Assembly: GCA_041749335.1 (NCBI GenBank)
Contig: JBGTBM010000009.1
Location: forward strand, 179 to 64,178
Origin: Patescibacteria group bacterium
GTDB lineage: Bacteria > Patescibacteriota > JABMPQ01
Direction of reading: 5' to 3'
DNA length: 64,000 bases
Made by a program: the position numbers and the translations under genes. The notes below the pieces were generated by a model. The model saw only the letters and a program-made list of their open reading frames with translations, was not told where the DNA came from and made no database searches. Below are positions 9,369 through 46,210 of the stretch, piece by piece. The first letter of the stretch is position 1, and the number at the start of each line of letters is the position of its first letter.

Positions 9369-9406
9369 ATTTTTATATTATTTTAATAAAATTTATTCTT
9401 TGCATA

Positions 9407-23320: not shown

Positions 23321-23326
23321 ATTTTA

Positions 23327-24187
23327 TTATTTATTTTTTGTTTTAATTTTTAAATAACCCCACAATAAAAATATTTTTAAAATATTAAAAGTATAAATAT
23401 ATTTTAATTTATATTTTAAACTTGGAATTTTTTCCTTAAATATTTCAAGTGGAATAAATAATTTAACAATTTTATTTTGTTTAAAATTATTATTTTTTCT
23501 TTTTAATAATATATGTCCTTCCTTAATTCTTATATATTTTTTATATAATTGCTTAAAGGAACTATTAGCAGGATGCTGCACTATTAAATTATCAGCGTAT
23601 TTAATTTTATATCCGTTTTTGTAAACTCTTCGACCCCATTCATAATCACCGCCAGATTTAAGTTTATCATTAAAGGTTCCAACCTTATTAAACAATTCTT
23701 TCCAAGTAAAAAGATTTGCTGTTACTCCAAAATTTTCGTGTTTTACGTAGTATTCTTGTGGAAATGCATGGACAGAATCATAGACTTCAACTGAGTTTAG
23801 TTTATTTTTATTTTTATAATACAATTCAACTCGACCCGCTATAACTTTATATTTCGGATTATTTTTAATTTCCCTTACGCCTATTTCTATCCAATCTTTT
23901 TGAGGAATACAATCAGAATCCGTAAATCCAATAATCTCTCCCCTGGACTTATTTATCCCTAAATTTCTTGCAGCATATGATCCTATTTTTTTTTCAAAAC
24001 AATATTTTACATTTTTATATTGATTAACTACATCTTTAATATTTTCTGTTGAATTATTATCAACAACAATAATCTCATAATTATTTTCATTATATGTTTG
24101 ATTTATTAATGCATACAAGCACTTTTTTAATCTTTCGGAATCATTATATATAGGAATAATGATACTCGTATCTATATAATTATTCAT
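23327..24187 (-). CDS. Glycosyltransferase family 2
   Basis: TSIIIPIYNDSERL...EIIVVDNNSTEN. Confidence 0.8.
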   Translation of the reverse strand: MNNYIDTSIIIPIYNDSERLKKCLYALINQTYNENNYEIIVVDNNSTENIKDVVNQYKNVKYCFEKKIGSYAARNLGINKSRGEIIGFTDSDCIPQKDWIEIGVREIKNNPKYKVIAGRVELYYKNKNKLNSVEVYDSVHAFPQEYYVKHENFGVTANLFTWKELFNKVGTFNDKLKSGGDYEWGRRVYKNGYKIKYADNLIVQHPANSSFKQLYKKYIRIKEGHILLKRKNNNFKQNKIVKLFIPLEIFKEKIPSLKYKLKYIYTFNILKIFLLWGYLKIKTKNK

Positions 24188-24226
24188 TTACAATACATAT
24201 TATTTAATCTTTCTAAACAAAATATT

Positions 24227-28240: not shown

Positions 28241-28303
28241 TGCAATATATATTTAAATTTTTATTAATATTAATTATAATTACTATAATATTTAAAACAA
28301 TAT

Positions 28304-29947: not shown

Positions 29948-29999
29948 AACCATTGAATTAATTAATGTTATTGATATGATTTCTTTAAATATTTAATTT

Positions 30000-31523
30000 A
30001 TGAATAATAATAATAATAATAATAATAAAACTAAATTCATTAAATTTTTTATATATTTAATACCGATATTAATTTGTTTATGGTTATTAAATAAATATTT
30101 CGTTTTTACGGGAAATTTAGATTCTTCCTACGTTTTTGACAATCAACCTTCAATATTTAATGAACTACAACCCGAAACTCGCGTGCATAGCCCAGAAATA
30201 AATTTAAAAACCGGTGAAAAATATCAAAGGATTCAGAGTGAACTGGTTTATTTTTCATTAAATATACCCCGATCTTTTCAAAAAGCTAATTTTACTTTTA
30301 CTTTCGACGCTCCCTCACAGCCAATAATTAATGTCGGAATAAAAAGAGCTTATGAAGATACTAGTTATGAATTTAAAACTTTAAAAAATGACTATTTTGA
30401 TAAATTAAATAAATATTGGACCAAAACTTATGACAAAAATAATAAAATAGTCTTAATGCAAAATTTAAATAAAGAGAATGAAAATTATGATACGGTACAA
30501 GGTTTTATTAATAATCCGCCTCAAAATAAAAAGATTGGAACATATTATATCGATTTAACTGATAATAAAAAATTAGAAAATTATAAACCCTCCAATAAAA
30601 TTAACAATATTGAAACTCCCTTAAGGGGCAAACACGAAATATACACATATATTAAAGATGAAACTCTAGATTATAATTTCTCTTACTATGATTTAAATAA
30701 CGAAGAAGGCCTAGATCAATTTAATATTAATGTATATAAAGGTCTTAAACTCGTTTATTCAAATTTATCTGAAGATGATGGAAATAATAAAGCAAATAAT
30801 TTAGTTTCTGAGTTTAAACAATTCCAACTTAAAATTCCTGATTTGGCTGAAGGTAAATATTTAATAAAACTCGCTTTACCAGAAGATATTATAATAAATA
30901 AAATTACTACCAGGCAGAAATACACTGTATTTGCAAGCAGAATACGCACTGTTGGCAATCGATTAGAATTTAATAATGATTATTCTTTTTCAGAAGTTCC
31001 TGTTAAAATATTTTCGCCTAATTCAAATTTTCAATTAAGAACATTCGGCCCTGTCAGCGAACAAGAAATATTAATAGACAATCAAAGCATTACTTTATCT
31101 TCAAATAACTCATCGCTTATAAATCATTCGACGGGCAAAGAAAATAACGAATTAATAGAAATTAATGCTCCCCTTGGCAATATTTTATTATTGGCACCTA
31201 TCTTTGTTTTTAATAAAGAGCAATATTTTGATCCATATTTTAATATAAACCAAATAGCATTAAATACTGCAATATCAGATGAATTTGATTATATTATTGG
31301 TACCATTGACGATTATTTAACCCCACAAAAATATCGCAATTGGTATAAAAACGAAATATCATTTGAAACCGCTAACGCCTACACGGAAAATGGTGAATTG
31401 AAATTTGCAATTCAAATTCCCGGATTTAACAACATTGATGATGTAATTATAAAAGATATTAAAGTCAACTTGCAGACCGATAATATATTTAAAAGATTAT
31501 TTAATAAAATAAATATTTATTAA
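30000..31523 (+). CDS. Hypothetical TM-anchored extracytoplasmic protein with N-terminal poly-Asn tract
   Basis: MNNNNNNNNNKTK, then one TM helix, then a roughly 470-aa hydrophilic domain with no recognisable motifs. Confidence 0.4.
   Translation: MNNNNNNNNKTKFIKFFIYLIPILICLWLLNKYFVFTGNLDSSYVFDNQPSIFNELQPETRVHSPEINLKTGEKYQRIQSELVYFSLNIPRSFQKANFTFTFDAPSQPIINVGIKRAYEDTSYEFKTLKNDYFDKLNKYWTKTYDKNNKIVLMQNLNKENENYDTVQGFINNPPQNKKIGTYYIDLTDNKKLENYKPSNKINNIETPLRGKHEIYTYIKDETLDYNFSYYDLNNEEGLDQFNINVYKGLKLVYSNLSEDDGNNKANNLVSEFKQFQLKIPDLAEGKYLIKLALPEDIIINKITTRQKYTVFASRIRTVGNRLEFNNDYSFSEVPVKIFSPNSNFQLRTFGPVSEQEILIDNQSITLSSNNSSLINHSTGKENNELIEINAPLGNILLLAPIFVFNKEQYFDPYFNINQIALNTAISDEFDYIIGTIDDYLTPQKYRNWYKNEISFETANAYTENGELKFAIQIPGFNNIDDVIIKDIKVNLQTDNIFKRLFNKINIY
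30003..30029 (+). repeat. (AAT)9 trinucleotide microsatellite inside the start of a CDS
   Basis: aat repeated 9 times immediately after the ATG. Confidence 0.9.
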
Positions 31524-31526
31524 AAT

Positions 31527-31910
31527 ATGAAATACCTATTTAAAACATTTATTCATATTAAAAATTCAACGCTGCTTATTATAAATACAATATTTATCAC
31601 ATCTCTTTTTTCTTATCTTTTATTGTTTTTGTTTAATATATTCCTAGGGGATTTTATCACTAATTTTATAAATTTAAATTATTTATTATATCCACTTGGA
31701 ATATCTTTAATTATTTTAATTTTTAATAATAACAATACTTATATAAACCAAGAATCTAACACTTTAACCCGTTTATTTATTTCTATTATTGGAAGCTTTA
31801 TAATATTCTTTTTAGCTAAAGAGCTGGGAGTATTTAAGTGGTTATTGACTCTATCGATTTTTTTTATACTATTTTATTCTACAAAGAACTTCAATAACGA
31901 TTCGCAATAA
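31527..31910 (+). CDS. Small 4-TM membrane protein, GtrA-like candidate (lipid-linked sugar flippase)
   Basis: 127 aa with about 4 TM helices, immediately upstream of a GT-C-like gene and near a GtrB-like GT2. Confidence 0.35.
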   Translation: MKYLFKTFIHIKNSTLLIINTIFITSLFSYLLLFLFNIFLGDFITNFINLNYLLYPLGISLIILIFNNNNTYINQESNTLTRLFISIIGSFIIFFLAKELGVFKWLLTLSIFFILFYSTKNFNNDSQ

Positions 31911-31968
31911 TTTTTTCGATAATTAACTTATATTATTTTATAAAATTGCGAATTTTTAATATAAATCG

Positions 31969-33888
31969 ATGAATAAAGTATTTAATTTTAATAAAATTAT
32001 TTTATTAATCAAATATATTAATATTATTTTAATATCTACTACTTTTATATTTTTACTTTATATAATTTTTTATTTGTTTTTATCCTTTAATTATTTAAAT
32101 TTATTATTTACCCATTCTGACATTTTTCTTTTTTCTTTAATATTATTTGATTTATTTATTATTTTTATATTTATTAAAAATAATAAATCATTAAATATAA
32201 ATATTCTTTATTTATATATTGCATTATTTATTTTATTAGAAGTGCCCTTATTAATTAACGGCTTTAATAATTCTATCATCCTTTTTCAAGATTTAGATTA
32301 TAATCAGTGTTTTATTGTAATATTTCTCGGAATGATAATATATTTTTTTACTAACAAGGGTAAATATTTATCTAGCAAAATTTTTAATAATAATTTACTT
32401 ATTATTAATTCTAAAATTAATAATAAGTCTAAATATTCCATATTATTAATATTTTTATTATTTTTACTTATAAAACTTTTAATTCCTTATTTTTATCAAG
32501 GATCATATATTGATGAATATTTTCATATTTTACATGGTATAAATATTTTTAATAACCTTGAAACAAATTATATCCGGGGCCTGCCCATCACCTTTTTATG
32601 CGGCCTACTTATTAATTTATTTGGAAATGAACTTTTTATTTTAAAATTAATTCCGGCAGTTATCGGAATCATAAACTTTTTGTTGCTTTATAAAATATCA
32701 AAATATTTTTTTAATAATTACAAATATACTTCATTATTATTAGCAATTTACACAATTTCTCCTTGGATAATTTTTAATCATTTTTATATAAGGTTTTATG
32801 TTTTGTACGAATTATTATTATTATTATCAATTTATATTTATTTTATAGTCAATAATTCTATAGCGAAAAAAAGATTAGTTTTGTCGCTATTATCCATAAT
32901 CATTTTCATTGTATTTAATGTTTTATTGTTCTTTATAATTAATGATTCCGGCTTTTATATGATAATTATTTTTAATTGTTTTTTAATATTCTTTTTAGTT
33001 ATTAAAAGTATATTAATTTTATCAAATGCAATTATAAAAAATATTTTTAAATATTTTTTTTATATACTTATAACTTTTTTCTTTTTTTATTTATTATTTA
33101 ATAATAAATTTAATTATTTAATAAAAGTAAATCTTGCTAACACCAACTATGAAATAAATAAATATGAATATTTCTTTTTTTATAAAAATATCGGCTTTAC
33201 AATATTATTTATTTTATCAATTTTTATCGCTTTAAAACATTTAAATAAAAAAGGTGAAATCAAATCTCAAAATATTATATTTATAGCTTCCTTTTTAATT
33301 CTGATAATACATTTAATATCTTCAAGTGACTTGCAACTAATTCGAAGTATAGTATACTTTATCCCCTTGTTTTATTTAGTTGCAATTTATTCTCTTAAAC
33401 ATTTAAATATTAAATCTATCTATAAATACCCAATAATGCTATTTTTATTTTTAACTATATTCAACAACTACCCAAGTAAATTTTTTAGCGATGGGCCTTA
33501 TATACCTTCAGAAGTTTTTTACCGAAGATTTAAAGAATCTTTTGACTTTATTAAAAATAATTGTGACGATTATTTCATAATTAATTTGACAAAAAATCAT
33601 TATGTTTCTTCTTTCTATGATATTAACGAATATTATCTTATTAATTCAATTTATTATAACAATCCATTGAGTGTTAATTATGATAATAAATTTATTAATT
33701 ATGAAAAATATAAAAATAAAATAAGAAAAAATGAGAATATATGTTATTTATATTCTCATTTGTGGTCAGTTAATAATAAAAATAAAACCTATCAATCTAT
33801 CCGTAGATACCTTAAAAATAATTATGATGATAAAATATCCTTTGGTAATTTTGAAGTGTTCATTTTTTTAAATAAAAATAATAATTAA
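31969..33888 (+). CDS. GT-C family membrane glycosyltransferase-like protein (ArnT/PMT/YfhO-like)
   Basis: 639 aa with many TM helices. YIDEYFHILHGINIF is DE-motif-like in an early loop. It converges on the GtrB-like GT2. Confidence 0.4.
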   Translation: MNKVFNFNKIILLIKYINIILISTTFIFLLYIIFYLFLSFNYLNLLFTHSDIFLFSLILFDLFIIFIFIKNNKSLNINILYLYIALFILLEVPLLINGFNNSIILFQDLDYNQCFIVIFLGMIIYFFTNKGKYLSSKIFNNNLLIINSKINNKSKYSILLIFLLFLLIKLLIPYFYQGSYIDEYFHILHGINIFNNLETNYIRGLPITFLCGLLINLFGNELFILKLIPAVIGIINFLLLYKISKYFFNNYKYTSLLLAIYTISPWIIFNHFYIRFYVLYELLLLLSIYIYFIVNNSIAKKRLVLSLLSIIIFIVFNVLLFFIINDSGFYMIIIFNCFLIFFLVIKSILILSNAIIKNIFKYFFYILITFFFFYLLFNNKFNYLIKVNLANTNYEINKYEYFFFYKNIGFTILFILSIFIALKHLNKKGEIKSQNIIFIASFLILIIHLISSSDLQLIRSIVYFIPLFYLVAIYSLKHLNIKSIYKYPIMLFLFLTIFNNYPSKFFSDGPYIPSEVFYRRFKESFDFIKNNCDDYFIINLTKNHYVSSFYDINEYYLINSIYYNNPLSVNYDNKFINYEKYKNKIRKNENICYLYSHLWSVNNKNKTYQSIRRYLKNNYDDKISFGNFEVFIFLNKNNN

Positions 33889-34817
33889 TTTTCAATTACT
33901 TCCTTGACAGAGTAATTTGCTCTATTTTTATTATAATATGTCTTTATGGCAATATCAGCTAAAATTCCTGAAATAAATAGCTGTAGACCAACTAAAACTA
34001 AAAATATTGCTACTAACGGCCAGATACTATTTTGCAAAGAGATTTTTCCTAAAATTCTGGTAATGGCTAGATAAATACCAAGGATAAATCCCCCCCCGCC
34101 TATTAATATTCCAAAACTGCCAAATAAATGCAGCGGCCGGGCAGAAAATTTTCTCCAAAACCAAACCATCCACATATCAAGAAAACCTTTTACAATCCTC
34201 CTTAAATTATATTTGGTTTTGCCAAATTTTCTTTCACGATGTTCCACTTTTACTTCACCCACTTTAAAGCCTTTCCACTTCAATATTGCGGGAATAAACC
34301 GGTGCATTTCTCCATACAGATCAAGATCATCAAAACATTCTTTCCGATAGGCCTTTAACGTACAGCCTGAATCGTGAATTTTATCTTTGATTAATAATCC
34401 CCTTAGTATATCAGCTCCGCGTGAAATAATTTTTTTTATAAAAGGATCTCGTCTTTTATAGCGCCACCCTGATACCAAATCATACCCTTCATTCAATTTA
34501 CTGATTAATTTACTGATTTCCGAGGGCGGATTTTGTCCATCACCATCAAGCGTAATTATTATCTCTCCTCTAGCTCTCTTGATGCCGGCATCTAGCGCGG
34601 CCGTTTGCCCAAAATTTTTCCTAAAATTTATTATTTTTATCGAATATAATTTTTTTAATTTTTCTAGGGTATTATCAATTGATCCGTCATTAACAAATAT
34701 TACTTCAAAATCCAAAGCGATCTTTTTCATTTCGTAAATAATTTCCCGATGCAATGAAATAACATTTTCTTCCTCATTAAAAACTGGCACAATAATTGAA
34801 TATTTTGGTTTGTTCAT
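33885..34817 (-). CDS. Polyprenyl-phosphate glycosyltransferase (GT2, GtrB/CsbB/ArnC-like) with 2 C-terminal TM helices
   Basis: YSIIVPVFNEEENV...VIFVNDGSIDNT...TLDGDGQNPP plus two C-terminal TM helices. Confidence 0.8.
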   Translation of the reverse strand: MNKPKYSIIVPVFNEEENVISLHREIIYEMKKIALDFEVIFVNDGSIDNTLEKLKKLYSIKIINFRKNFGQTAALDAGIKRARGEIIITLDGDGQNPPSEISKLISKLNEGYDLVSGWRYKRRDPFIKKIISRGADILRGLLIKDKIHDSGCTLKAYRKECFDDLDLYGEMHRFIPAILKWKGFKVGEVKVEHRERKFGKTKYNLRRIVKGFLDMWMVWFWRKFSARPLHLFGSFGILIGGGGFILGIYLAITRILGKISLQNSIWPLVAIFLVLVGLQLFISGILADIAIKTYYNKNRANYSVKEVIEN

Positions 34818-34818
34818 A

Positions 34819-36150
34819 TTATTTTATTAATTCACTCTTAATAATACCGATAATATATTTTATATTTAAATTTATTTTTAATTTTAATCCCAATTTTTTT
34901 CTTAAATAATATATCTCAAATATCGCAACTACCAGCTGTGCAAATACTGTTACGATTACTGCACCCAATGCTCCATAAAATGGTATAAATATTAAATCTA
35001 GTATTACATTAACTGCTGCACCAAATAATACAATGCGTGTTGTGTATTTAGCGTACTTTGTAGCTATTAAAAAAGTTCGACAGACACTAAATATTTTTAT
35101 TAATAAAAGTGGTAGTAATACTTTAAGTAATATAATTGATGCTTGATATTGAGGAAATAATTTTTCAATTAATGAATCTGATAATACAAATAAAAGTAAG
35201 GTGGTTGGAAAAACAAATATAATCGACAAGGATAATATTTTTGTAAATAATTCCTGGAGTTTTTCTTTCCTTCCATCAATAAAATAAGTAGTAATCACCG
35301 GTGCGAATACAGCACTAATAAAAGTAAATATTACTACAAATGGCATCTGAAATATTTTGTCAGCTACATTAAAATAAGCAACTTCGGCATTATCACAATA
35401 TTTTCCAATTATTATAATATCTATTCTAGTATATAAAAAATATGTCACGCTCGTTATACTAATCGGAATTGCATATTTTATAATTCTTTTTCCTGTATTA
35501 ATAATATAAATCTTTTGTTCTTTTATATATCTTAAATATTTATAATCGATTATTATAAACCCAAATATTACAGAAATTAATATTCCAAATATTGTTATTA
35601 ACAAAACATTAAGAATTTCTAATTTTTGATATTTGATCAATGCCAGCAATAATGATATTTGAATAATTCTAGATATAAAAAAAGTTAGAGTAGAATATTT
35701 CAAATTTTGGTAACCTTTAATAATACTTTCAACTATTGCACTTGAACAAGATATAATTATAAAAGCAGGTGCGATTTTTAATAAAATTGTAAGTTCCTCT
35801 CTATTAAATATTTTTGAAATATAATCTTTTAATATAAATAAAACAATTCCCAATATTAAAGAAATTATAATTGAATAAATTATACTAGTTATGATTAAAG
35901 ATCTTGTTTCTTTTTTTTCAATTTCCTTGTTTGATAAAGATTCAGCGATATATTTTGATGTAGACTCACTTAATCCGTTTACTACAAAGTACATAAAAAA
36001 GAAGGTGATTGAATAAAATAATAAATATAACCCATATTTATCAGGGTCCCAAGTATTAGATAAAATAAAAAAAACTACAAATATTGAAATATTTGATATT
36101 ATTATTTGAATAATTTTCCAGAAACTATTCCTCGCTATCTTTGATATCAT
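34819..36150 (-). CDS. wzx: Wzx-type flippase (MOP superfamily), second copy
   Basis: 443 aa with about 12 TM helices. Confidence 0.65.
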   Translation of the reverse strand: MISKIARNSFWKIIQIIISNISIFVVFFILSNTWDPDKYGLYLLFYSITFFFMYFVVNGLSESTSKYIAESLSNKEIEKKETRSLIITSIIYSIIISLILGIVLFILKDYISKIFNREELTILLKIAPAFIIISCSSAIVESIIKGYQNLKYSTLTFFISRIIQISLLLALIKYQKLEILNVLLITIFGILISVIFGFIIIDYKYLRYIKEQKIYIINTGKRIIKYAIPISITSVTYFLYTRIDIIIIGKYCDNAEVAYFNVADKIFQMPFVVIFTFISAVFAPVITTYFIDGRKEKLQELFTKILSLSIIFVFPTTLLLFVLSDSLIEKLFPQYQASIILLKVLLPLLLIKIFSVCRTFLIATKYAKYTTRIVLFGAAVNVILDLIFIPFYGALGAVIVTVFAQLVVAIFEIYYLRKKLGLKLKINLNIKYIIGIIKSELIK

Positions 36151-36153
36151 CCT

Positions 36154-37023
36154 TTACCTCTTCCATTTAGATAAATCCTTTTTAAATAATATTTCCAACT
36201 GTTCAATATCCTTAATAAATTTTTTTATAAGGTATTTTCTAGTACAATTTTCCATATTTCTATAAACAATTTTTCTTGTCGATAAGTTAATAATCTTTTC
36301 TTTAAAACCGCTTTCTTTTATTTTTTTGATAACGTTTGATAAATTAAATAATATCATTGCTTGAGATAAATATTTCATTAATGATAATATTAATACGTTA
36401 TTAATCTCCCTTGAAGAATTTACTTTTTCATTTATTTTATTTGGAATAAACTCATCATCAACTTCTAAAAATTTATATAATTTTTTTATTTCTATTAAAG
36501 GATTTTGTTTAATATCTTCTATAAATAAAAATATAATTTGTTTTTTATCAAAATATTTTAACCATCTATTAATGTGAAAACTATATAATCCTTTATCAAT
36601 ATACTCCTCTTCTAATCTTACGACATCTTCAAAATCTCTTTTTTCTTTCTTAAAATAATTTTTATACATCAAATACTGTGAATAAGCCCTATCTATCGGA
36701 TTTCTTAAACACACAATTATTTTTATATCAGGAAATTTTATTTTTATTCTTTTTGGTGCTTCTTTATCAATCAAATATTGAGTTGAGAACTCTCCCTTTA
36801 CGCAATTATTTTTACAATGCTTAAAATGTTTTGAATACCACTTAAAAGTTTTATTGAAATTTCTATTTTTAAAATTAAAAATATATGATGATTTTTTATT
36901 AAAATATTGAACTTCTTTTGGTTCAGATAATTCAATCTCGGGATGTTGATCTAGCATTTTTGATAACCATGTCGTGCCTGCTTTTTCTGCTCCTATGCCA
37001 ATAAAGTTAATTTTTAAATCCAT
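36154..37023 (-). CDS. Sulfotransferase (PAPS-dependent family)
   Basis: 5'-PSB motif IGIGAEKAGTTWL and 3'-PB motif CLRNPIDRAYSQY. Confidence 0.75.
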   Translation of the reverse strand: MDLKINFIGIGAEKAGTTWLSKMLDQHPEIELSEPKEVQYFNKKSSYIFNFKNRNFNKTFKWYSKHFKHCKNNCVKGEFSTQYLIDKEAPKRIKIKFPDIKIIVCLRNPIDRAYSQYLMYKNYFKKEKRDFEDVVRLEEEYIDKGLYSFHINRWLKYFDKKQIIFLFIEDIKQNPLIEIKKLYKFLEVDDEFIPNKINEKVNSSREINNVLILSLMKYLSQAMILFNLSNVIKKIKESGFKEKIINLSTRKIVYRNMENCTRKYLIKKFIKDIEQLEILFKKDLSKWKR

Positions 37024-37051
37024 AATTTTAATTAATAATCCGTCAAAACAT

Positions 37052-37756
37052 CTAACTATATAATTTTTTTCCTACAATAATAAATCTTCTAAGAAATGTT
37101 AATCTCAATTTATATATTTTTGAATTAATAGAATTGCCCTTGTAAAACAATGTTAAAACTTTAATTAATTTACTAATTATTATTCCAATTACCCCCTCAA
37201 GGAATGAATAAAAATATTTATATTCAAATGTATTAAGATTATTATTATAAAATATTTGAATAATTCGCCTAACAGTCGTTATATTATTATGAGTATAATC
37301 GCAATTAAAAAAATCATTTCTCCAATCTAAATAATCTGGACTAAGTATTATTATCATCCCTCTTTTTTTTAATACTCTTTCTGATTCTGAAATAAATGTT
37401 TCTGCCTCATTAGAATTATTTAAGTGCTCATATACATCAAAACATAAAATTATATCATACGATTCATCTATTTCATTCAATGTTGGTATTTTATAATTAC
37501 TTACCTTTCGGACACCAATATTCTTCATTAATTTATTCATATTAATATTTGGCTCAACAACATCGTAATTTTTATATCCATTTTTGAGAAATACTTTTGC
37601 CAAATCTCCCTTCCCTGGTCCAATTTCTAAAATATCACAATTCTTACTTCTTAAATATTTACAAATATATCTAAAATCTCTCTTAGTTTTTCTATTATGT
37701 AATAATTTACCAATTTTAGTAGATTTGCTTTCTGCAAAGTGGTCAAAATATGGCAT
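37052..37756 (-). CDS. Class I SAM-dependent methyltransferase
   Basis: Motif I ILEIGPGKGDL and post-I ILCFDVYEHL. Confidence 0.7.
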   Translation of the reverse strand: MPYFDHFAESKSTKIGKLLHNRKTKRDFRYICKYLRSKNCDILEIGPGKGDLAKVFLKNGYKNYDVVEPNINMNKLMKNIGVRKVSNYKIPTLNEIDESYDIILCFDVYEHLNNSNEAETFISESERVLKKRGMIIILSPDYLDWRNDFFNCDYTHNNITTVRRIIQIFYNNNLNTFEYKYFYSFLEGVIGIIISKLIKVLTLFYKGNSINSKIYKLRLTFLRRFIIVGKKLYS

Positions 37757-38813
37757 TGTATATCTTTTTAAGTTTTATTAAATAATTATTTAATGAATAT
37801 TTTATTGCAGTTTTATAACCTTCTTCAATAATGTTTTTTCTATAAATATTATTTGTAGAAATATTAATAATCTTTTTAGCCAAATCTTGTGAATTATTAA
37901 CTTCAAAAAGCAATCCATTTTTTGTATTTATTATTTCATTGAGCCCATATGTGTTACTTGCAATTACAGGTGTTCCGCAAGATAACGATTCTAATTGAGT
38001 CATCCCCAGTGCTTCCCATAAAGATGGAATCACAAAACAGTCTATTGAGTTATAGAAACTAGGCATATCATATATCATACCAATCAAGAAAACATTATTT
38101 TGTAGATTATAATTATTAATTATATTTTTAATTTTATTTCTGTCTGGACCATCACCAGCTATTAGAAATTTAAATCTTTTATCATCACATGCTATTTTTT
38201 TTGCAGCGTTTAATAAAATCTTCCAACCCTTTCTTTTATTAAGTCTTGCTGCAAAGCCTATTAAAATATCTTTTTTGCTTATATTATATTTTGTTAAACT
38301 AAATTTTTTTAAAGAAAATTTTTTAAATTTATCTGTATCAACAAAATTATATAATACCTCAATTTTATTTTTTTTAACTTTGGCATTTTTAATTAATAAT
38401 TTCTTAATATGATCAGACACTGAAATAAATTTATTAACTCTATCTTGTGCAAAATTAATAAACAAATTATATAATTTTTGATTTTTTACTATTTTCCCGT
38501 GTTCATGGAAAATTAATTTTATATCTTTATTAATAAAAGCTTTATATAAATATCCAATCAGAAATGACTTAAATAAATGGCAGTGTAATATATTAAAATC
38601 CTTTTTTTTAACTATCTTTTTTAAAATTAATAAACAACCAATATTGATTTTTCGGTAAGATTTATTATATATAATATTGCCATAATTATATTTTCTTACA
38701 GAATTTCTAAGAGAAAAACAATAATTAGATTTATCCTTCCTGATTATTCCTAATACAACAGTTTGAGCTCCTCCCAAACCTAGATGATCAATTAAGTGTA
38801 GTATTTTTTTCAT
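37743..38813 (-). CDS. Glycosyltransferase family 4
   Basis: HLIDHLGLGGAQ at the N-terminus and EALGMTQLESLSCGTPVIASNTYGLNEII. Confidence 0.8.
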   Translation of the reverse strand: MKKILHLIDHLGLGGAQTVVLGIIRKDKSNYCFSLRNSVRKYNYGNIIYNKSYRKINIGCLLILKKIVKKKDFNILHCHLFKSFLIGYLYKAFINKDIKLIFHEHGKIVKNQKLYNLFINFAQDRVNKFISVSDHIKKLLIKNAKVKKNKIEVLYNFVDTDKFKKFSLKKFSLTKYNISKKDILIGFAARLNKRKGWKILLNAAKKIACDDKRFKFLIAGDGPDRNKIKNIINNYNLQNNVFLIGMIYDMPSFYNSIDCFVIPSLWEALGMTQLESLSCGTPVIASNTYGLNEIINTKNGLLFEVNNSQDLAKKIINISTNNIYRKNIIEEGYKTAIKYSLNNYLIKLKKIYNAIF

Positions 38814-38994
38814 ATCTAAATTTTACATATCGTATATATATTCCACTTCTTGAAGGTGTTAATTTTTTTACAAATTCAAATTTAACTTTACATCTACTGC
38901 CCATTTAAATTATTAATTTATTATATATATCTTTTAAATCTTTTTCTTAAATCATAGATCTTTTTCCAATTTTAATGGTTATTTTATTAATATC

Positions 38995-39420
38995 CTATTG
39001 GATTATCTGAAATATTTTATCAGCTGCATTAAAATAAGCAACTTCGGCATTATCACAATATTTACTAATTATTATTATATCAATTCTAGTATATAAAAAA
39101 AATATGTGATACTAGTGATGCTTATGAGTATGGCATATTCTAATATTTTCTTTCCCACTCCACTAATAAAAATTCTTTGCGCCTGAAGATTATTCAAATA
39201 TTAATGCCTTCATTTTTTGACAATGATTGTGCGATATATTTGGCAATTGATTCACTTAAACCATTAACAATAAAATACATAAAAAAGAAAGTGATTAAGT
39301 AAAAAGAGTAAATAAAGCCCATATTTATCCGGACTCCATGCGTTAGATAAAATATAATAAATTAGCAAATAATGCTAAATTGTATATTATTATTTGTATT
39401 ATTTTCCAAATACTGTTTTT
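38995..39420 (-). pseudogene. Degenerate remnant of a Wzx flippase gene (internally deleted paralog of 34819-36150)
   Basis: 39001-39140 aligns to 35340-35470 and 39225-39420 aligns to 35935-36130 at roughly 80-85% identity. No ORF survives. Confidence 0.75.
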
Positions 39421-40573
39421 AAGAATTATTGTCGACATTATTAATTAATTTTTTATAATTTATTTCTAGATCCTTACAAATTTTCGAAATATTAAAATTG
39501 TTTATAGTGTGTTTTTGTCCATTTAATCCTATACAATCTCTTAATTCCGTATTTTTTAATAATTCTATTGTTTTTTTTGCGTATTTTATTGGATCATTTT
39601 CAATAATAATATCCTGATTGTTTTTAGCGTCAATTCCATATGCACCTATGCTCGTAGTTATTACCGGCATCCCCGCAGCCATAGCTTCAAGAATTTTAAC
39701 TTTGATTCCACTTCCCCATGTTATTGGTGCCACAAAAACCTTATAAAAAGTAAAATGATCTTTAACATCACTAACTTCTCCACAAAGTATTATATTTTTA
39801 CTTTTCATCATTGATATTTTTTCATAATATTTTCCAATAATATAGAATTTTGCCCGTGGTATTTTTAATAAGATTTCAGGAAATATATTCTTAATGAAAT
39901 AATTTACAGCATCAATATTCGCATAATGTTTAAAATTTCCGATAAATAATAATGAATCTTCTTTAATAATATTTCTTTTTTTATTATACTCATTGACCTT
40001 TAGGCCTATTGGGCAAACTTGGATGTTTAAATTATTATTTTCCTTTTTTATTAATAGTTTATCGTCTTTACTTCTCGTTAATATTAACTCCGCATGCTTT
40101 AATATCTGCATTTCTACTTTTTTAACAATCCAATATTTTATTAAATTTAATATTTTAGATGTACCCTTGCTATATTGATATCGAGTCTGCCTACTGCCAA
40201 ATAATACATCTACCTCACTTATTACTATTTTTTTGTGTTTTATAAAAGGAGAATATAACCCACATAATGTATATTCTATATGGACTATTTGAATATCGTA
40301 AATTTTAATAATATTATTTATTTCTAATAAAAATTCAGTAAAATAATTTTTAATGAATTTTATAGGATTTTTATGAAATTTTAATTTATTAAAAACTTTT
40401 AAATAGGCACAATACTTCATTAGATTATCCATTTCTTCCTTTTCATAGCCCTCTATCCGTGAAATAAAATAGATATCATTTTTTTTTGATAATTCTTTTA
40501 TTAAATTAAGCATATACACCCCCCCTCCATGAAATCTTGAAGGAAAATGAGTTGAAACAATTAATATTCGCAT
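39419..40573 (-). CDS. Glycosyltransferase family 4
   Basis: MRILIVSTHFPSRFHGGGVYM at the N-terminus and a C-terminal GT-B domain. Confidence 0.75.
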   Translation of the reverse strand: MRILIVSTHFPSRFHGGGVYMLNLIKELSKKNDIYFISRIEGYEKEEMDNLMKYCAYLKVFNKLKFHKNPIKFIKNYFTEFLLEINNIIKIYDIQIVHIEYTLCGLYSPFIKHKKIVISEVDVLFGSRQTRYQYSKGTSKILNLIKYWIVKKVEMQILKHAELILTRSKDDKLLIKKENNNLNIQVCPIGLKVNEYNKKRNIIKEDSLLFIGNFKHYANIDAVNYFIKNIFPEILLKIPRAKFYIIGKYYEKISMMKSKNIILCGEVSDVKDHFTFYKVFVAPITWGSGIKVKILEAMAAGMPVITTSIGAYGIDAKNNQDIIIENDPIKYAKKTIELLKNTELRDCIGLNGQKHTINNFNISKICKDLEINYKKLINNVDNNS

Positions 40574-40616
40574 ATATTTCCTATTTCTTTTATAATTTTA
40601 TATTATTTTAATTAAT

Positions 40617-41400
40617 TTACTTTAATTTACATACAAATATTGTCCCCGCACAACATATCCATGGAGATATTGACTTTAATATTCCTTCTAATTTATTTCC
40701 GATTCCATTTAATTCATATTTTTTATTTTTTGCTCGTAGAAATGGGAAGTCCATATAAAAACCCATACTTTTAGGTTTTTTAAAATCATCGGCTGCAATT
40801 TCAACAATTTGAAAACCATTCCTAAGTAAAATCTTTTTAAATTTATTTTTTGTAAAACGATATTCGCCAAAAACCATTTTACATCCATTGATTTTATTTA
40901 ATAAAACAAATATATTTTTTATATGATTTATAAATAATCTTCTGATAAAATTTTGAGTTGGAATTGTTATAATCAGATAACCATTTTTTCTTAAAACCCT
41001 TCTCATTTCATCCAAGGCCCCTTGGGGACCCTCCTTAAAATGTTCCACCACTCCTAATGAAATTATTACATCAAAATAATTATTTGGATATTTTATATCT
41101 AATATATTTCCTTTTTCAATTTTAATATTACTTCCAGATAATTTTATTTTTTTTATATATAGCATCATCACTTAACTCTATCCCTTGAATATCATATCCT
41201 TGACTATTTAAATAGAATACCCACCTTCCTAATCCGCATCCCGCCTCTAATATTTTATGAGTTTTTTTTAAATACTTATTAAATATATCATCTACATTTT
41301 GGTATTTACACAATGCAATTCCTTCATTTATTGATTGACCCAACCAACATTGGCCTAAAGTATCTCTATTATTTTCTTTTTGATAATGTATATAAGTCAT
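40617..41400 (-). pseudogene. SAM-dependent methyltransferase disrupted by a frameshift at an A8 (plus-strand T8) homopolymer
   Basis: ORF 41128-41400 carries motif I ILEAGCGLGRW. ORF 40617-41171 carries FDVIISLGVVEHF and LRKNGYLII. The frame switches within the T8 run at 41147-41154. Confidence 0.65.
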
Positions 41401-42374
41401 TTTCTCACTACCTTTCTTCGTTTAATAATATATTTAGGTATCAAACAAAATGCGTTAAAATTTGCTTTTACTAAAATTATAGTCATTTTCCATATTCCGA
41501 TATTTTCTTTTAATTTTTCAACCGATTCATTTTTATTAAAAAAATAAGAAATTTTTAATTTAATATTTCGTAAAGGAAATAATAAAAGATCGAATAATGC
41601 TAGATTTTTAATAGCTGTCAAAATTGAATTCCGCTCACAATAAAAAGATTTGAAGGGAGATGCTACTCCTCCTGTTTTAGAATGAAGGTGGATTAACTTT
41701 GCATTCGCAGATAGATATGATATATAACCCATACTTCGCATCCTAAAACCAATGTCATAATCTTCTGTATATGCAAAAAAATCTTCATCAAAAAATTCTT
41801 TATCTCTGGCAATTATTTTTTTCACCATCTCCCTTTTAAAAAGCGCTGCAACTCCACCAGCAGCAAAAACCTCAGAATCTGTGTTAAGTTCTGGAATTTG
41901 TTCATCGGTCATTCCATATCCCATTGATACCCCCCCCTTTTTATTAATATGTATGCTTTTACTAAACTCTAATCCTGCGTTTTGAATCGTCTTCCCATCA
42001 CTAAAATATGCCTTACTTGTTACAGAGCCAATTAAATTATTTTTTTGAGCAGTTTTAATTAAATTATTTAACCAATTTTTCTCAACAATAGTATCATTAT
42101 TTAAGCAAATTATATATTTTATGTTTTTATCAGTAAGGGCATTCTTAATTCCTTCATTATTACCTTTGGCATATCCATAATTTTTATTAAGTTTAATTAT
42201 TTTTACTTTATTAAAAAATTTTTTTACAAAATTTACGCTATCATCTACAGAACCATTATCAACCAGATATATTACAAAATTTTTATATGTTTGATTGTAC
42301 AAAGAATTCAAACAATCATTTAAATATTCTTTACCATTCCAATTAACAATTATTATTGCTACGTTATCTCTCAT
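41397..42374 (-). CDS. Glycosyltransferase family 2
   Basis: VAIIIVNWNGKEYL...VIYLVDNGSVDDS. Confidence 0.8.
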   Translation of the reverse strand: MRDNVAIIIVNWNGKEYLNDCLNSLYNQTYKNFVIYLVDNGSVDDSVNFVKKFFNKVKIIKLNKNYGYAKGNNEGIKNALTDKNIKYIICLNNDTIVEKNWLNNLIKTAQKNNLIGSVTSKAYFSDGKTIQNAGLEFSKSIHINKKGGVSMGYGMTDEQIPELNTDSEVFAAGGVAALFKREMVKKIIARDKEFFDEDFFAYTEDYDIGFRMRSMGYISYLSANAKLIHLHSKTGGVASPFKSFYCERNSILTAIKNLALFDLLLFPLRNIKLKISYFFNKNESVEKLKENIGIWKMTIILVKANFNAFCLIPKYIIKRRKVVRK

Positions 42375-42439
42375 TATTTTAATTTCATCTACTATTATTT
42401 CAAATTTATTTATAAATATTAATTATTTATAATTTAAGT

Positions 42440-43738
42440 TTATATTTCATTAATAGTATATAAATATTTTCCGTTTTTTAAACAATTAATATTTTTTACA
42501 AATTCCCAATCTATTTTACAGCTTTGTCCCATCACTTTTTTAATTGATTTTTCGATTCTATTTCTGTTCTCTTCAAATAATGTCTTCCTTTCTAAAACAA
42601 CCTTAATAAGTATTTTATTATAATTCTTTTGAATTACTTGAAATTTTTTAATATAGCCTTGATTATAAATTACCCCTATGAAATGTATAAAATATTCCGC
42701 GGGTATAATTTTACCCTCTTTCGTCGTAAATATACTTATTTCCCTACCCTCAACTTTTTCTAAATAACTCCAATTTTCACCTCTAATACCAATATCACCT
42801 ATTTCATATCTAATAAAAGGCATTGAGTAATTATTTAAATTAGTGATATAAATCTTATTATTTTCTAATACTTCTAAATAATTATTCCAAAAACTCAATT
42901 TCAATCCTTGATTAGTATTATCATCACACGCCATATCCCCAACTTCCCTTGATCCATATCGATTAAAAACTTTTGTTTTAAAAACTTCTTCGATCTTCTG
43001 TTTTATTTCTGGATATAGCGTACCAGCGGAAGTTAAAATTCCTTTAGGACTATACATTTTAAAATTATTTCTTTGAATAAATTTAGCGAATTCAGACATT
43101 GACTGAACATATGCCTCTACCCAAACCGGCTTAAACTTATTCCAATCTTTTACAAATTTTCTCATATTCTTTTCTGACATTTTAAAACTATTTAATTCTT
43201 TTCTATTATATAAAAAGTTTTTTAAACGCGTTGAGAACATTTCCTTGTCCAGTAATAAATCCCTCTCTGATCCCCATAAGCGCAATTCTCTATACCCCAT
43301 ATCTTGCTTAGCAAAAGTCTTAAAATATATTTTGTTAGCAATATTCCAATCACTATAATTTTTATCTTAAAGAAATCTTACCGGCTCACCTGTGCTTCCA
43401 CCAGAAGTATTTTCGTAGAATCCTCTTTTTTTGTAATCTTTAGAATATAAATTACTCCCTTCGCTTCTAATTATTTCTTTTGTAAGAATGGGAATTTTAT
43501 TGAAATTTTCCAAATATACTTTATTATTTTTAACAACTCCGGCCACTGCTAAAATCTTATGATAATATAGAACATTCTCGTAGGCATGCTTTAGTATTTT
43601 TTTAAGCTTTTCCTTTTGATATTTCTCCTTTTCCGATAAAGAAAAATTATTAATTTTTTTTATTTCTTTTATGTTTCCAGAAATTTTACTGCCAGCTAGA
43701 TAAAGGAAGAAATATATTATTGGTTTACGCCAGTTCAT
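42440..43738 (-). pseudogene. CapK/PaaK-like adenylate-forming enzyme (phenylacetate-CoA ligase family) interrupted by an in-frame TAA
   Basis: The upstream ORF ends ...TSGGSTGEPVRFL* (AMP-binding motif). The same reading frame continues after the TAA at 43367-43369 (minus strand) as DKNYSDW... into ORF 42440-43300. Confidence 0.65.
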
Positions 43739-44864
43739 CTTTTTTAATTATATCCCTATATATAAGAAAATACTTATTGGCCATATTATCCCAGCTCATT
43801 TTTTCAGCCTTATTTCTACTTTCCCACTTCATTTTTTTAAGTCTTTGCCTATCTGTATATAGATTTTCCAGACTTTTATATATGTCATTTATATTTTTTT
43901 TATTTATAATAATGCCGTTTCTCTTATCGATTAATTCTCTTGTGCCTCCGGTATCAGTTGAGATTATTGCCAACCCAGATGACATTGCCTCTAATAATGA
44001 ATTACTCATCCCTTCATTAAGAGAAGGAAGCACAAATACATCAGATTTTTTATAATAATCATTTATATTATTATGATCAATTGTACCTAATATATTAATT
44101 TTATCTTTGAGGCCAGATTTAATTACTTTTTCTTCTATTTTTTCCCTTAAATTGCCATCTCCTATTATAATCAAGTCACTTTCTTTATATTTCTTATTGA
44201 ATTTAATAAACGCATCAATTAAGTAATTTATTCCTTTTCTTTTAATAAGACGCGATGTTGAAATTATAGTAAATTTATTATTTTCCCTTTTTTGAGGTTT
44301 AAATTTTTCAAAATCAATCCCATTATAAATTACTTCGAAATTTTGTTCTGCGCAGCTCCTTTCCGCTAATATTTTTAATCCTTCAGAATTAGTTACTACT
44401 CGTTTTGATCTTTCCCAAATATTTTTACTTAATCTCTGAAAAATTATTTTATCCAACCAATAAAATCTTTTGTTATAAAAAGGAACATCGCTTCCGCGTA
44501 AACTGACAATATAAGGTAAGTCAAGTTTCATTGCAATATAGCCACATGGAATTCCAAAAAAAGCATGGACTAAATCAAAATTATTTTTTTTATTTAATTT
44601 TTTACAAAATAAATAAGCCCTAAGGGTATAATTTAATATATCTTTATTGCTCTGATAGTGTAAATTTCCCTTTTTACCGATATTTAAAAAGTATATTTTG
44701 ACATTGTCGCTAATATTTTTCTCTTGATATTTGCCTATTGATGAAGTGACTAAAGTAATATTAATATTTTTTTCTTTGGCCAATTCTTTTAATAAATAAT
44801 AAGTCGCATTGCCCGCGCCTCCTCCGAGTGGTGGATATTCATAGTTCAACATTAAAATATTCAT
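43725..44864 (-). CDS. Glycosyltransferase family 4
   Basis: MNILMLNYEYPPLGGGAGNAT at the N-terminus and a C-terminal GT-B domain. Confidence 0.8.
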   Translation of the reverse strand: MNILMLNYEYPPLGGGAGNATYYLLKELAKEKNINITLVTSSIGKYQEKNISDNVKIYFLNIGKKGNLHYQSNKDILNYTLRAYLFCKKLNKKNNFDLVHAFFGIPCGYIAMKLDLPYIVSLRGSDVPFYNKRFYWLDKIIFQRLSKNIWERSKRVVTNSEGLKILAERSCAEQNFEVIYNGIDFEKFKPQKRENNKFTIISTSRLIKRKGINYLIDAFIKFNKKYKESDLIIIGDGNLREKIEEKVIKSGLKDKINILGTIDHNNINDYYKKSDVFVLPSLNEGMSNSLLEAMSSGLAIISTDTGGTRELIDKRNGIIINKKNINDIYKSLENLYTDRQRLKKMKWESRNKAEKMSWDNMANKYFLIYRDIIKKDELA

Positions 44865-44895: not shown

Positions 44896-44930
44896 AAAAA
44901 AAGCCGAATTTGTCTATAATTCGGCTTATT
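44896..44930 (-). terminator. Rho-independent terminator downstream of the GC-rich lipoprotein gene
   Basis: agccgaatt-tgtctat-aattcggct hairpin with a T-run on the minus strand (A7 on plus). Confidence 0.6.
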
Positions 44931-44938
44931 AACATTTT

Positions 44939-46081
44939 TTATGGTTGAAATTTTGAAAAGTAATTATAAATTTTACTTTCCGACCAGGCTTCATTATACA
45001 CAACAATTTCATCAATTAAACCCTGGTAATACCTTAAGGTATTACCATCAGTTCCAATTTTGATTATTCCCCCGGGTACAAAAGAAGCTATAGTCTTGCT
45101 GTTTTCCAACATTCCATTAATAATAATGCGTAGATTAGATCCATCGAAAGTAAAGGCCAGATGGGTCCAATCATTATTAATCACATCGGAAGTTGAAAGC
45201 AACCCTGATTGCATTGTAGCAACCCATTTAATAGAAACGCCATCATTCCACATCATTAATCCAGGCAAGTCATCATTCTTCCAAAAAACATATTTCTTAT
45301 CATTAACAGTAGATGGCTTAACCCATGCCATTATAGTATAACCACTGCTGATCGAATCCAAGCTCGCCGAATCCGCCACCTCAATATAACCATCAACTCC
45401 GTTAAATTGAGCCGAACAGCTATCTTGATCTTCACCCGGAACAAAATCCCCGGCATTGCAAGCCAAACTCGCTCCGCCGTATGCCACGCCATTATTGCCA
45501 TTTCCGGAAAGATCGGCCACGTACGTAGGCCAGGTGGTCCAGGCATCGCCGAACTGAAACAGCAGCTTTAGGCTGCCGCAATCCTCGTCAATCTGCCCGT
45601 CGCAGTTATTATCCAAGCCGTCACACACCTCATGACCGCCCATTGAAACACTGCACTGGTATTCACAGCCATCGGCCGGATCATCGTTTTGATCCCACCA
45701 AGTATGCGAAGTTCCTGATACCAAACATTCTGCGACCTGACATTGCCCCAAGATACATTCCGCAGTTGCATTCGGCAGATTGCAGACATTGCCGCAATAA
45801 CCGCAGTTATTGGGATTATTCTGCAAATCAAAGACCTCATCAATCTGGCCGTTGCAGTTATTGTCCGCCCCATCGCAGATTTCCACACCGCCGTTGGTCG
45901 GTACGCACGCGTCATTGTTATTATTGACGTTGGTATCCGGCTGAACTTCTGCGTCCGTCATCCCCGAATCATTATTATGATTCGGCGGCAAAAGTCCGGT
46001 AGCATCAAAAACACATCCCGACAGCGTAATCGCCATTGCAAGCAGATATACGAGATTCAATTCAAATCTTTTCAAAACCAT
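44939..46081 (-). CDS. Secreted lipoprotein with MopE-like Cys-rich metal-binding repeats and a C-terminal LamG/concanavalin-like domain
   Basis: Lipobox LSGC. Repeats CDGADNNCNGQIDE and CDGLDNNCDGQIDEDC. LamG-like C-terminus. GC content is visibly higher than the surrounding DNA, producing many spurious overlapping ORFs in the track. Confidence 0.6.
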   Translation of the reverse strand: MVLKRFELNLVYLLAMAITLSGCVFDATGLLPPNHNNDSGMTDAEVQPDTNVNNNNDACVPTNGGVEICDGADNNCNGQIDEVFDLQNNPNNCGYCGNVCNLPNATAECILGQCQVAECLVSGTSHTWWDQNDDPADGCEYQCSVSMGGHEVCDGLDNNCDGQIDEDCGSLKLLFQFGDAWTTWPTYVADLSGNGNNGVAYGGASLACNAGDFVPGEDQDSCSAQFNGVDGYIEVADSASLDSISSGYTIMAWVKPSTVNDKKYVFWKNDDLPGLMMWNDGVSIKWVATMQSGLLSTSDVINNDWTHLAFTFDGSNLRIIINGMLENSKTIASFVPGGIIKIGTDGNTLRYYQGLIDEIVVYNEAWSESKIYNYFSKFQP

Positions 46082-46086
46082 AATTT

Positions 46087-46158
46087 CCTCCTTTTTCTCT
46101 TGTTTTCAAAGAACATTTTTTCTGTTTACACCATATAACTTTTAATCTATTTTGTCAA
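46087..46158 (-). promoter_or_regulatory. Promoter plus strong RBS of the lipoprotein gene
   Basis: On the minus strand: TTGACA (plus 46153-46158), a 17-nt spacer, then TATGGT (plus 46130-46135). AGGAGG (plus 46087-46092) sits 5 nt before the ATG. Confidence 0.45.
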
Positions 46159-46210
46159 TATTTTTTACATAATAAAAAACTTAACAAAAATGCTAAGTTT
46201 TTTATAAAAT

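Follow-up and report, generated by a model that had tools for sequence, protein, structure and literature searches.

Background

Patescibacteria spend their lives attached to other microbes, and little is known of the molecules by which they choose and hold their partners. Concanavalin A (ConA)-like lectins and lectin-like minor pilins have been proposed as attachment factors of this group (PMC12911398, PMC11623550). Another described family that bears on the present case is Cu-binding_MopE (PF11617), which covers only a small, non-specific part of MopE (PMC6189053). Here we describe a gene in which a PF11617-type cysteine-rich part is joined to a LamG domain of ConA-like fold. It occupies positions 44939..46081, on the minus strand, of a 64,000-nucleotide (nt) stretch from a Patescibacteria group bacterium (assembly GCA_041749335.1, contig JBGTBM010000009.1, positions 179 to 64,178), hereafter the window, and encodes a putative lipoprotein of 380 amino acids (aa). 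Because of its high GC content, an earlier note on this DNA had described the gene as probably horizontally acquired.

On balance, we lean towards a different explanation: a long-resident surface lipoprotein, expressed from a monocistronic cassette and bearing a lectin-like head, whose GC content reflects mostly its amino acids together with the trace of an old import. Three points seem to us worth keeping whatever the origin of the gene, namely the conserved expression cassette, an intragenic seam with a hypervariable lectin core, and a puzzling synonymous GC excess that persists in the 5' part.

Residence of the gene in its present slot

The gene sits between UGDH, the last gene of a nucleotide-sugar/MetK block, and the first family 4 glycosyltransferase (GT4) of a glycan island, as the earlier note had recognized. 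Its best full-length homologs, P0002 (59-61% identity), P0003 (51%) and P0004 (44-46%), belong to the same lineage or to other low-GC genomes, an outcome which that note had itself named beforehand as speaking against transfer. Its check for presence in a sister genome gave the same answer. P0002 is encoded on a 551-kb contig of a sister Patescibacteria (L001), again between UGDH and a GT4: the order there is AspRS, YbaK, RmlD, NTP transferase, three epimerases, MetK, UGDH, the ortholog and GT4, identical to that of the window from AspRS to UGDH. The GT4 is followed by another low-GC island, different in gene content from that of the window. Protein identity between the two contigs is 70-90% for the flanking genes, 61% for the lipoprotein and only 36% for the downstream GT4.

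Synonymous randomization was measured as the fraction of identical codons at conserved residues, compared with within-amino-acid shuffles. Between the window and L001, the residual signal amounts to 0.07-0.13 for the lipoprotein gene and 0.03-0.12 for its flanks, so that the gene has diverged for as long as its neighbors. On a third contig (L090, encoding P0003), the upstream signals are conserved with the window and L001. In a more distant Patescibacteria (L005, GCA_028699085.1; MetK 61% identical), a homolog with 33% identity lies about 5 kb downstream of MetK-UGDH. The AspRS relatives next in similarity (66-71% identity) come from genomes with another gene order after YbaK; these lack the whole sugar block at this position and are therefore uninformative on the presence or absence of the gene. 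As a check of the source organism, the best named relatives of the window's AspRS are Patescibacteria, Parcubacteria and Buchananbacteria. Gene order and divergence thus indicate that the gene already occupied its present slot before the window genome and its sister split, and that it has long been at home there rather than being newly imported. Of the horizontal acquisition proposed earlier, a recent event is contradicted by the syntenic ortholog and by a divergence equal to that of the flanks; what is left is at most an old event affecting part of the gene.

Expression signals and transcription unit

The open reading frame (ORF), with its stop codon at 44939-44941, was confirmed as a real gene, and the expression signals previously ascribed to it are all present on the minus strand. 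The sigma-70-type promoter TTGACA-17-TATGGT (46130..46158) agrees with the consensus at 10 of 12 positions; the window, L001 and L090 share its -35 hexamer without change, and the -10 region is conserved among them. A ribosome-binding site (RBS), AGGAGG (46087..46092), is evident in the sequence 5 nt upstream of the ATG, and AAGGAGG together with the ATG is retained in L001 and L090. Downstream, a predicted intrinsic terminator consists of AAGCCGAAT-loop-ATTCGGCTT followed by a T-run (44901..44927). Its hairpin is conserved in L001, and the region downstream of the gene is 85% identical between the two contigs. On the upstream side, UGDH ends in a terminator-like hairpin of its own (46172..46205; an inverted repeat with 15-nt arms, 93% complementary, and a 4-nt loop), which separates the lipoprotein gene from the nucleotide-sugar operon. 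L001 carries a GC-rich hairpin of different sequence at the same place after UGDH. Since promoter, 5' untranslated region (5'UTR), RBS and terminator are conserved and UGDH ends in its own hairpin, the gene, as judged from these signals, forms a conserved monocistronic cassette.

The 5'UTR itself contains a block of 22-23 nt, CAGAAAAAATGTTCTTTGAAAAC (46102..46124, minus strand), identified by comparison of the three genomes. Across the window, L001 (9955-9976) and L090 (about 927-948), the block (CAGAAAAATGTTCTTTGAAAAC) differs by one indel and one substitution, while synonymous sites are almost randomized. It holds a TTCnnnGAA half-palindrome and could serve as an operator or in the control of translation. 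A structured RNA was considered and rejected: Rfam returned nothing near its gathering scores, and the hairpin predicted from pairing of the 5'UTR with the Shine-Dalgarno sequence is weak (-1.3 kcal/mol) and shows no covariation.

Current gene calls miss the start of the protein. The public call (P0001, 365 aa) starts at Met16 and cuts the signal peptide short (window 46036-46081), and that in L001 begins five codons after the ATG served by the RBS (L001 9986-10000); both remove the charged n-region of the signal peptide. The gene shares its DNA with five ORFs of 71-131 aa that run in other frames and are distributed over both strands. They had been taken for spurious, and rightly so, as the low density of stop codons in GC-rich DNA yields such by-products. 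An overlapping or antisense gene was considered all the same. Alternative-frame ORFs exist in L001, with a similarity of about 54% or less that is imposed by the 90%-conserved sense frame, and no second frame is constrained, since synonymous sites are near random. A terminator scan also flagged a perfect 10+4+10 palindrome, TGGTAATACCTTAAGGTATTACCA (45024-45047), inside the coding sequence, at codons ~345-352.

Architecture of the predicted lipoprotein

The protein begins with a putative type II (lipoprotein) signal peptide (aa 1-23; 46013..46081), made up of a charged n-region (MVLKR), the h-region FELNLVYLLAMAIT and the lipobox LSGC, which matches [LVI][ASTVI][GAS]C and places the lipobox cysteine at position 23, as already noted from the sequence. 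The ATG that gives this signal peptide is the one served by the conserved RBS, and a lipobox-type cysteine is shared by 12 of 15 family members, whose hosts include both low-GC and high-GC organisms. A low-complexity linker rich in Asn, Asp and Pro follows (aa 24-58; 45908..46012); it is poorly conserved (40-50% identity) and modeled with a pLDDT below 50.

Next comes a cysteine-rich module (aa 59-143; 45653..45907) with 11 cysteines, which comprises MopE-type motif 1 (CDGADNNCNGQIDE) and an NCGYCGNVC...DGCEYQC part. A second, partial unit (aa 144-168; 45578..45652) carries MopE-type motif 2 (CDGLDNNCDGQIDEDC), where PF11617 has its best stretch (aa 147-166). Pfam matches Cu-binding_MopE in these two stretches with 46.8 bits (gathering cutoff 27), which bears out the CxDxxDNNCxGxIDE repeats of the earlier note: the two CDGxDNNCxGQIDE motifs, ICDGADNNCNGQIDE and VCDGLDNNCDGQIDE, lie 84 codons apart and form a 58-nt direct repeat of 74% identity. 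The sister ortholog P0002 carries one additional complete module. Counting C208 and C222 of the region that follows, 16 cysteines come after the lipobox, a number consistent with eight putative extracellular disulfides.

The pre-LamG region and first LamG strands (aa 169-246; 45344..45577) are GC-rich (about 0.53), highly conserved and modeled with a pLDDT of 82-90. They lead into the LamG beta-sandwich core (aa 247-345; 45047..45343; pLDDT 85-94), which is hypervariable and host-like in composition. The C-terminal LamG strand and helix (aa 346-380, GLIDEIVVYN...FQP; 44942..45046), part of the Pfam LamG match, are partly conserved across the whole family.

An AlphaFold2 model of the cysteine-rich part (aa 55-170, from a 42-sequence alignment) reaches a mean pLDDT of 91. 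No relative was found in the PDB by sequence (E ≤ 10), by a 42-sequence profile (E ≤ 1) or by Foldseek, and MopE was not retrieved. The module, abundant in Myxococcota and predicted with confidence but lacking a solved relative, is therefore an open structural target. Its acidic CDGxDNNCDGxxDE loop gives a sub-threshold EF-hand match and is resembled by teneurin-type motifs (PMC3278476); to judge from these signatures, the DxDNNCxGxxDE loops probably bind Ca2+ rather than Cu. The MopE-like metal-binding character claimed earlier thus stands at the level of a 30-residue motif, beyond which no similarity to MopE was seen.

The kinship of the module with Myxococcota is clearer. A scan of 185,579 representative genomes (GTDB) used the family alignment, fixed on the CDGxDNDC motif, and did not return the window's own genome. 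Its best 80 loci are nearly all from Myxococcota, at no more than 53% identity over aa 49-167, and none of them comes from Bdellovibrio. The 'myxobacterial' label of the earlier note is therefore supported. The modules themselves are 50-53% identical. Many of the Myxococcota homologs of the N-terminal part carry a C-terminal FGE-sulfatase domain (PF03781).

The LamG assignment was likewise borne out. Laminin_G_3 (PF13385) matches aa 228-371 with an E value of 5.8e-22 and 78.9 bits (cutoff 27.6), over profile positions 2-150 of 151, and an AlphaFold2 model from an 11-sequence alignment shows aa 170-380 as a beta-sandwich of 14 strands (pLDDT 80-94). Foldseek returned 548 PDB matches at E ≤ 1e-3 for the LamG part, the top 50 shown being all ConA-like domains. 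The best is the carbohydrate-binding domain 4 of the arabinanase AbnA (5hon_A; E value 2.5e-13, TM-score 0.75), also retrieved by phmmer (E value 5e-4), and next come the lectin-like HCN subdomains of clostridial neurotoxins and NTNH.

A candidate recognition protein

Taken together, signal peptide, domain matches and structural models make a lipid-anchored lectin or adhesin, with a head that sets ligand specificity, the most likely function. LamG domains also bind proteins, a point against a lectin in the strict sense. The position beside a strain-variable glycan locus suggests that the ligand is the cell's own envelope glycan or a glycan of a partner. Under the mechanism we propose, the protein would be exported by the Sec pathway through its type II signal peptide and anchored by a lipid at Cys23 on the outer face of the membrane. 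The flexible Asn-rich linker and the 1.5 disulfide-rich modules would hold out the C-terminal ConA-like/LamG beta-sandwich, and this in turn might bind a glycan or another surface ligand, either the variable envelope glycan specified by the adjacent island or a glycan of a partner or host cell. The LamG core would diverge several-fold faster than the rest, as expected of a region of ligand specificity or an antigenic region. Conserved, probably strongly expressed, endowed with a head that diverges far faster than the rest of the genome and located beside a strain-variable glycan locus, the protein is a reasonable candidate for a role in partner recognition or in glycan anchoring. It is also small enough to be convenient for expression and binding assays.

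Composition of the GC peak

With a GC content of 0.444 and a GC content at third codon positions (GC3) of 0.449, the gene ranks highest among the 53 ORFs of the window on both counts. The contrast with the flanks observed earlier is therefore real, but it overstates the anomaly. Part of the visual peak is contrast with the GC-poor island alongside: island genes range from 0.17 to 0.33, as compared with 0.375 for the pooled core, and are the strongest compositional outlier of the window. Furthermore, we re-encoded the protein with core-gene codon frequencies and obtained an expected GC of 0.419, against 0.445 observed and 0.375 in the core, so that about 60% of the excess over the core is due to amino-acid composition. 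The protein is rich in Gly, Cys, Asp, Ala and Pro and poor in Lys, Ile and Phe. As to codon usage, the distance of the whole gene to the core (0.121) falls inside the core range (0.074-0.185), and it is only in the GC3 of the N-terminal part that the gene stands above the host.

The remaining excess is synonymous and confined to the 5' two-thirds (codons 31-247). GC reaches 0.51 at nt ~45340-46000 and falls to 0.34 in the 3' third. In the N-part (aa 31-227), GC3 is 0.553 where 0.382±0.031 is expected (z 5.5), and in the C-part (the last 153 aa) it is 0.333 where 0.378 is expected (z -1.3). The N-part excess recurs in L001 (z 11.0), L004 (5.6), L005 (11.1) and L092 (5.2), and in L090 the GC3 of the whole gene is 0.346, compared with 0.266 upstream. 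The excess is a property of the region and not of single codons: GC3 is 0.535 at conserved and 0.54 at variable codons of the N-part, and 0.312 at conserved codons of the C-part (p 0.008).

Several simple causes were tried and rejected. Codon context does not account for the excess, as z is still 5.2-11.5 once the next base is taken into account. Nor is a genome-wide preference at conserved residues the cause, the corresponding difference in flank genes being -0.03 to +0.03. Faster amelioration at unconstrained codons is contradicted by N-part variable codons, which are as GC3-rich as conserved ones. Finally, the module has no intrinsic need of GC-rich codons, since an archaeal homolog (L091) has a GC3 of 0.137, below its own flanks (0.248), an anomaly opposite to that of the bacterial carriers.

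Most simply, the synonymous remainder would be the incompletely ameliorated trace of an old import of a Myxococcota-type cysteine-rich part, with the 3' LamG core turned over or replaced within low-GC lineages. Such an import is plausible, although we rate it slightly below an even bet. A two-state likelihood was computed for 131 synonymous N-part sites in the trio of window, L001 and L090. A stationary model (pi 0.43) gives a -lnL of 261.0 (261.01), and decay to the host equilibrium from a root GC3 of 0.62 gives 258.95. This difference in lnL of about 2 mildly favors amelioration of a GC-rich cysteine part, a slight edge that is indecisive. The near-saturation of synonymous sites is a weak argument against a relic, as a residual of about 0.1 between two lineages is compatible with a retention of about 0.3 in each.

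Four observations weigh against an old import. The regional GC3 pattern is not predicted by simple amelioration of the whole gene. By parsimony polarization of three taxa, the window lineage shows 19 weak-to-strong (W>S) and 7 strong-to-weak (S>W) changes, hence no net loss of GC; this comparison has little power near saturation. Sequences from GC-rich hosts all fall outside the window clade, the nearest of them being 40-43% identical. Lastly, L005 and L092 are too distant to share one import with the window clade, so that passive retention needs at least three separate imports at similar GC3, or else very slow amelioration.

Alternative explanations

The gene reads as a mosaic, the two parts of which meet in a seam at codon ~247. 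In the window, maximum likelihood places a change-point in GC at codon 247 (from 0.514 to 0.340; likelihood ratio 30.8), and the change-points of L001 (about codon 261) and of the distant L005 (about codon 241) map to homologous positions. Identity to the homologs P0002, P0003 and P0004, in a comparison that rests on three or four sequences, is 0.72, 0.71 and 0.64 in the cysteine module (aa 59-168), 0.91, 0.78 and 0.66 in the pre-LamG region, and only 0.37, 0.25 and 0.24 in the LamG core. In the core, the window is no closer to these three than to homologs from GC-rich hosts or to intermediate ones (0.38-0.42). At the extreme C-terminus identity recovers, and the terminator, too, is conserved, so that the variable segment lies within the gene rather than prolonging the island. 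The LamG core either evolves several-fold faster than the rest, under diversifying or relaxed selection, or is replaced by recombination.

In its strongest form, the second option makes the gene a recombinant, composed of a conserved 5' 'handle' and a LamG-core cassette repeatedly replaced by homologous recombination from a low-GC allele pool. The sharp fall of both GC and identity at one codon argues for it, and so does a core that is no closer to its sister orthologs than to distant family members, although the N-part tree is well resolved. GC-rich-host homologs have a ~190-aa insertion exactly at the seam, conserved codons of the C-part have a host-like GC3, and the adjacent island has itself been swapped between sister genomes. 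Nevertheless, accelerated point-mutational divergence by lineage could produce the same identity pattern, the conserved C-terminus and terminator require two breakpoints inside one domain, and no donor allele was found: a metagenome scan with the conserved aa 165-250 gave no relative above 50% identity. We therefore regard repeated replacement as possible, if rather doubtful.

A second alternative concerns the other side of the seam. The gene may be native or anciently resident, its 5' synonymous GC excess being no foreign relic but actively maintained. Selection could act on the mRNA or on the way in which the disulfide-rich part is translated, or else GC-biased gene conversion could operate in a recombination-prone segment. 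Consistent with this, N-part GC3 is about 0.5 in the window, L001, L004 and L005, and 0.39 in L092, while host GC3 is 0.22-0.35. Synonymous sites are fully randomized between the window and L004 or L005, yet the excess is kept in both. The homologous position of the change-points, the regional character of the excess, the surplus of W>S changes and the location of the L005 homolog near MetK-UGDH, as in the window, point the same way. Against it stand the GC-poor archaeal homolog, which has at least five MopE motifs, the absence of a GC3 preference at conserved sites in flank genes, the inability of next-base context to explain the excess and the slightly worse fit of the stationary model. We rate maintained GC as a serious rival, though less likely than not; an old transfer of the cysteine module, itself plausible, and local GC maintenance are inseparable on present data.

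Both ideas can be combined into a two-part recognition device of an ultra-small episymbiont. A conserved lipid-anchored 'handle', held by a local force at a synonymous GC ~0.2 above the genome, would be joined at the seam to a LamG 'head' that is swapped or diversified with the glycan island and sets the host-glycan specificity of the strain or its anchoring to self glycans. We consider this combination improbable.

By comparison, there is very little to commend a recent acquisition from a GC-rich donor of myxobacterial or Bdellovibrio type, with the GC peak as a gene newly inserted at the island edge. The highest GC and GC3 of the window, the resemblance of the cysteine module to Myxococcota proteins and the proximity of a hypervariable island would fit this reading. 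However, apart from the ortholog at the identical position in L001 and the regulatory cassette conserved in three genomes, mobility signatures are lacking at the gene, with no tRNA in the 64 kb, no integrase and no flanking direct repeats other than short AT-rich chance ones. Its GC3 of 0.45-0.55 is also far from that of a Myxococcota donor (0.92 in L002, a homolog with native composition in a 68%-GC organism), the codon usage of the whole gene falls within the range of the core, and the best full-length matches are in low-GC genomes. The case calls for some caution in method: what had been taken for recent transfer, a local peak of GC in an AT-rich genome, proved to be mostly amino-acid composition in an old syntenic resident.

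Targeting of the hypervariable 3' part by a diversity-generating retroelement (DGR) can practically be dismissed: genomes of the candidate phyla radiation are rich in DGRs, and the FGE-sulfatase domain found in Myxococcota homologs has the C-type-lectin-like fold typical of DGR targets, but the variable stretch is about 300 nt of LamG fold and not a short C-terminal C-type-lectin variable region, and blastn of the gene against the 64-kb window gave only the internal motif repeat, with no copy of a template repeat and no reverse transcriptase ORF.

Genomic context

Nearly every gene of the window is encoded by the minus strand, and the GC skew stays negative throughout. In minus-strand order, the upstream genes are SecA, two FG-GAP fusion proteins, SecD, SecF, AspRS and YbaK, followed by RmlD, a nucleotidyltransferase, three epimerases, MetK, UGDH and the lipoprotein gene. 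The FG-GAP proteins, adjacent to each other (58012-59427 and 60256-61989), are fusions with cell-wall enzymes, one with a YkuD L,D-transpeptidase and the next with an M14 zinc carboxypeptidase. Of the two, the former is also relatively GC-rich (0.434). ARAGORN found no tRNA or tmRNA in the window.

The island (19725..44864, ~25 kb) contains GT4 and GT2 glycosyltransferases, two Wzx-type flippases, methyltransferases, a PMT_2 protein, a sulfotransferase (PF00685; 36154-37023) and an 838-aa fusion (24227-26743) of an F420-hydrogenase-beta-like Fe-S domain with a polysaccharide pyruvyl transferase. Sulfotransferase and pyruvyl transferase fusion together imply a sulfated and pyruvylated envelope glycan. 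Three island ORFs, 31969-33888 (639 aa, GC 0.171), 21668-23320 and 30000-31523, have no Pfam match. Beyond the island lie more glycosyltransferases, Wzy_C, DUF4012, CtpB, PyrG and a class I tRNA synthetase.

Family distribution

A full HMMER scan of 1.84 billion cluster representatives returned 32,187 matches, of which the best 150 are nearly all giant multi-LamG or multi-MopE proteins. Only about 10 of the representatives scanned share the compact architecture of lipobox, cysteine module and single LamG domain; they come from low-GC bacteria, a DPANN-like archaeon and GC-rich bacteria. In a neighbor-joining tree, the window protein groups with P0002 and P0003 (91% bootstrap) and then with P0004 (100%), the deeper nodes being unresolved.

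Several carriers merit mention. The archaeal-type contig L091 encodes a family member with a LamG domain in addition to its MopE motifs (8001-9956), near genes for diphthamide synthase, a CarS-like protein and a family B DNA polymerase (PolB). In L092 (86-765 and 2479-4263), the homolog P0018 (GC3 0.39, flanks 0.27) lies about 1.7 kb from two fragments of IS1595-family transposases, and is the only carrier with a mobility gene nearby. In L005 (7229-11467), a GC-rich stretch reaches about 2.7 kb further upstream than the called homolog P0030, whose sequence has no signal peptide. The actual gene probably exceeds this call in length and in its number of cysteine-rich modules, and an antisense ORF called there (8519-9478) looks like an artefact.

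Comparison with known systems

The closest described relatives of the cysteine-rich part are the PF11617 proteins of Myxococcota, with which the lipoprotein has in common the ~85-aa module (CDGxDNDCDGxxDE plus NCGxCGxxC...DGCEYxC). These proteins are often fused to an FGE-sulfatase domain, whereas the C-terminal domain here is LamG; the host is a 36-38% GC Patescibacteria, only 1.5 modules are present, and N-part GC3 is 0.55, not 0.9. The likeness to MopE/CorA of methanotrophs, such as MopE of Methylococcus capsulatus, is limited to the PF11617 motif of ~30 residues, beyond which we found no similarity. Unlike MopE/CorA, the gene has no methanotrophy context, being located in a Patescibacteria host among nucleotide-sugar and glycosyltransferase genes.

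On the LamG side, the best structural matches, domain 4 of Geobacillus AbnA (PDB 5HON) and the HCN subdomains of clostridial neurotoxins and NTNH, are only 13-21% identical in sequence, and they sit in enzymes or toxins, not in lipoproteins. A nearer comparison is provided by the LamG/PF13385 surface proteins of Patescibacteria and other bacteria, a family that the C-terminal 150 aa match well above threshold. As in these ConA-like/LamG proteins, the predicted fold is a beta-sandwich with carbohydrate-binding structural neighbors. Most of the LamG relatives in databases, however, are giant multi-LamG proteins of 1,000-7,000 aa, whereas we find a compact lipoprotein with a single LamG domain on a cysteine-rich stalk; a LamG core that is hypervariable between sister genomes further sets it against other PF13385 surface proteins. 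The gene adds a member to two known kinds, the LamG surface proteins and the MopE-motif repeat proteins, and is not a new system.

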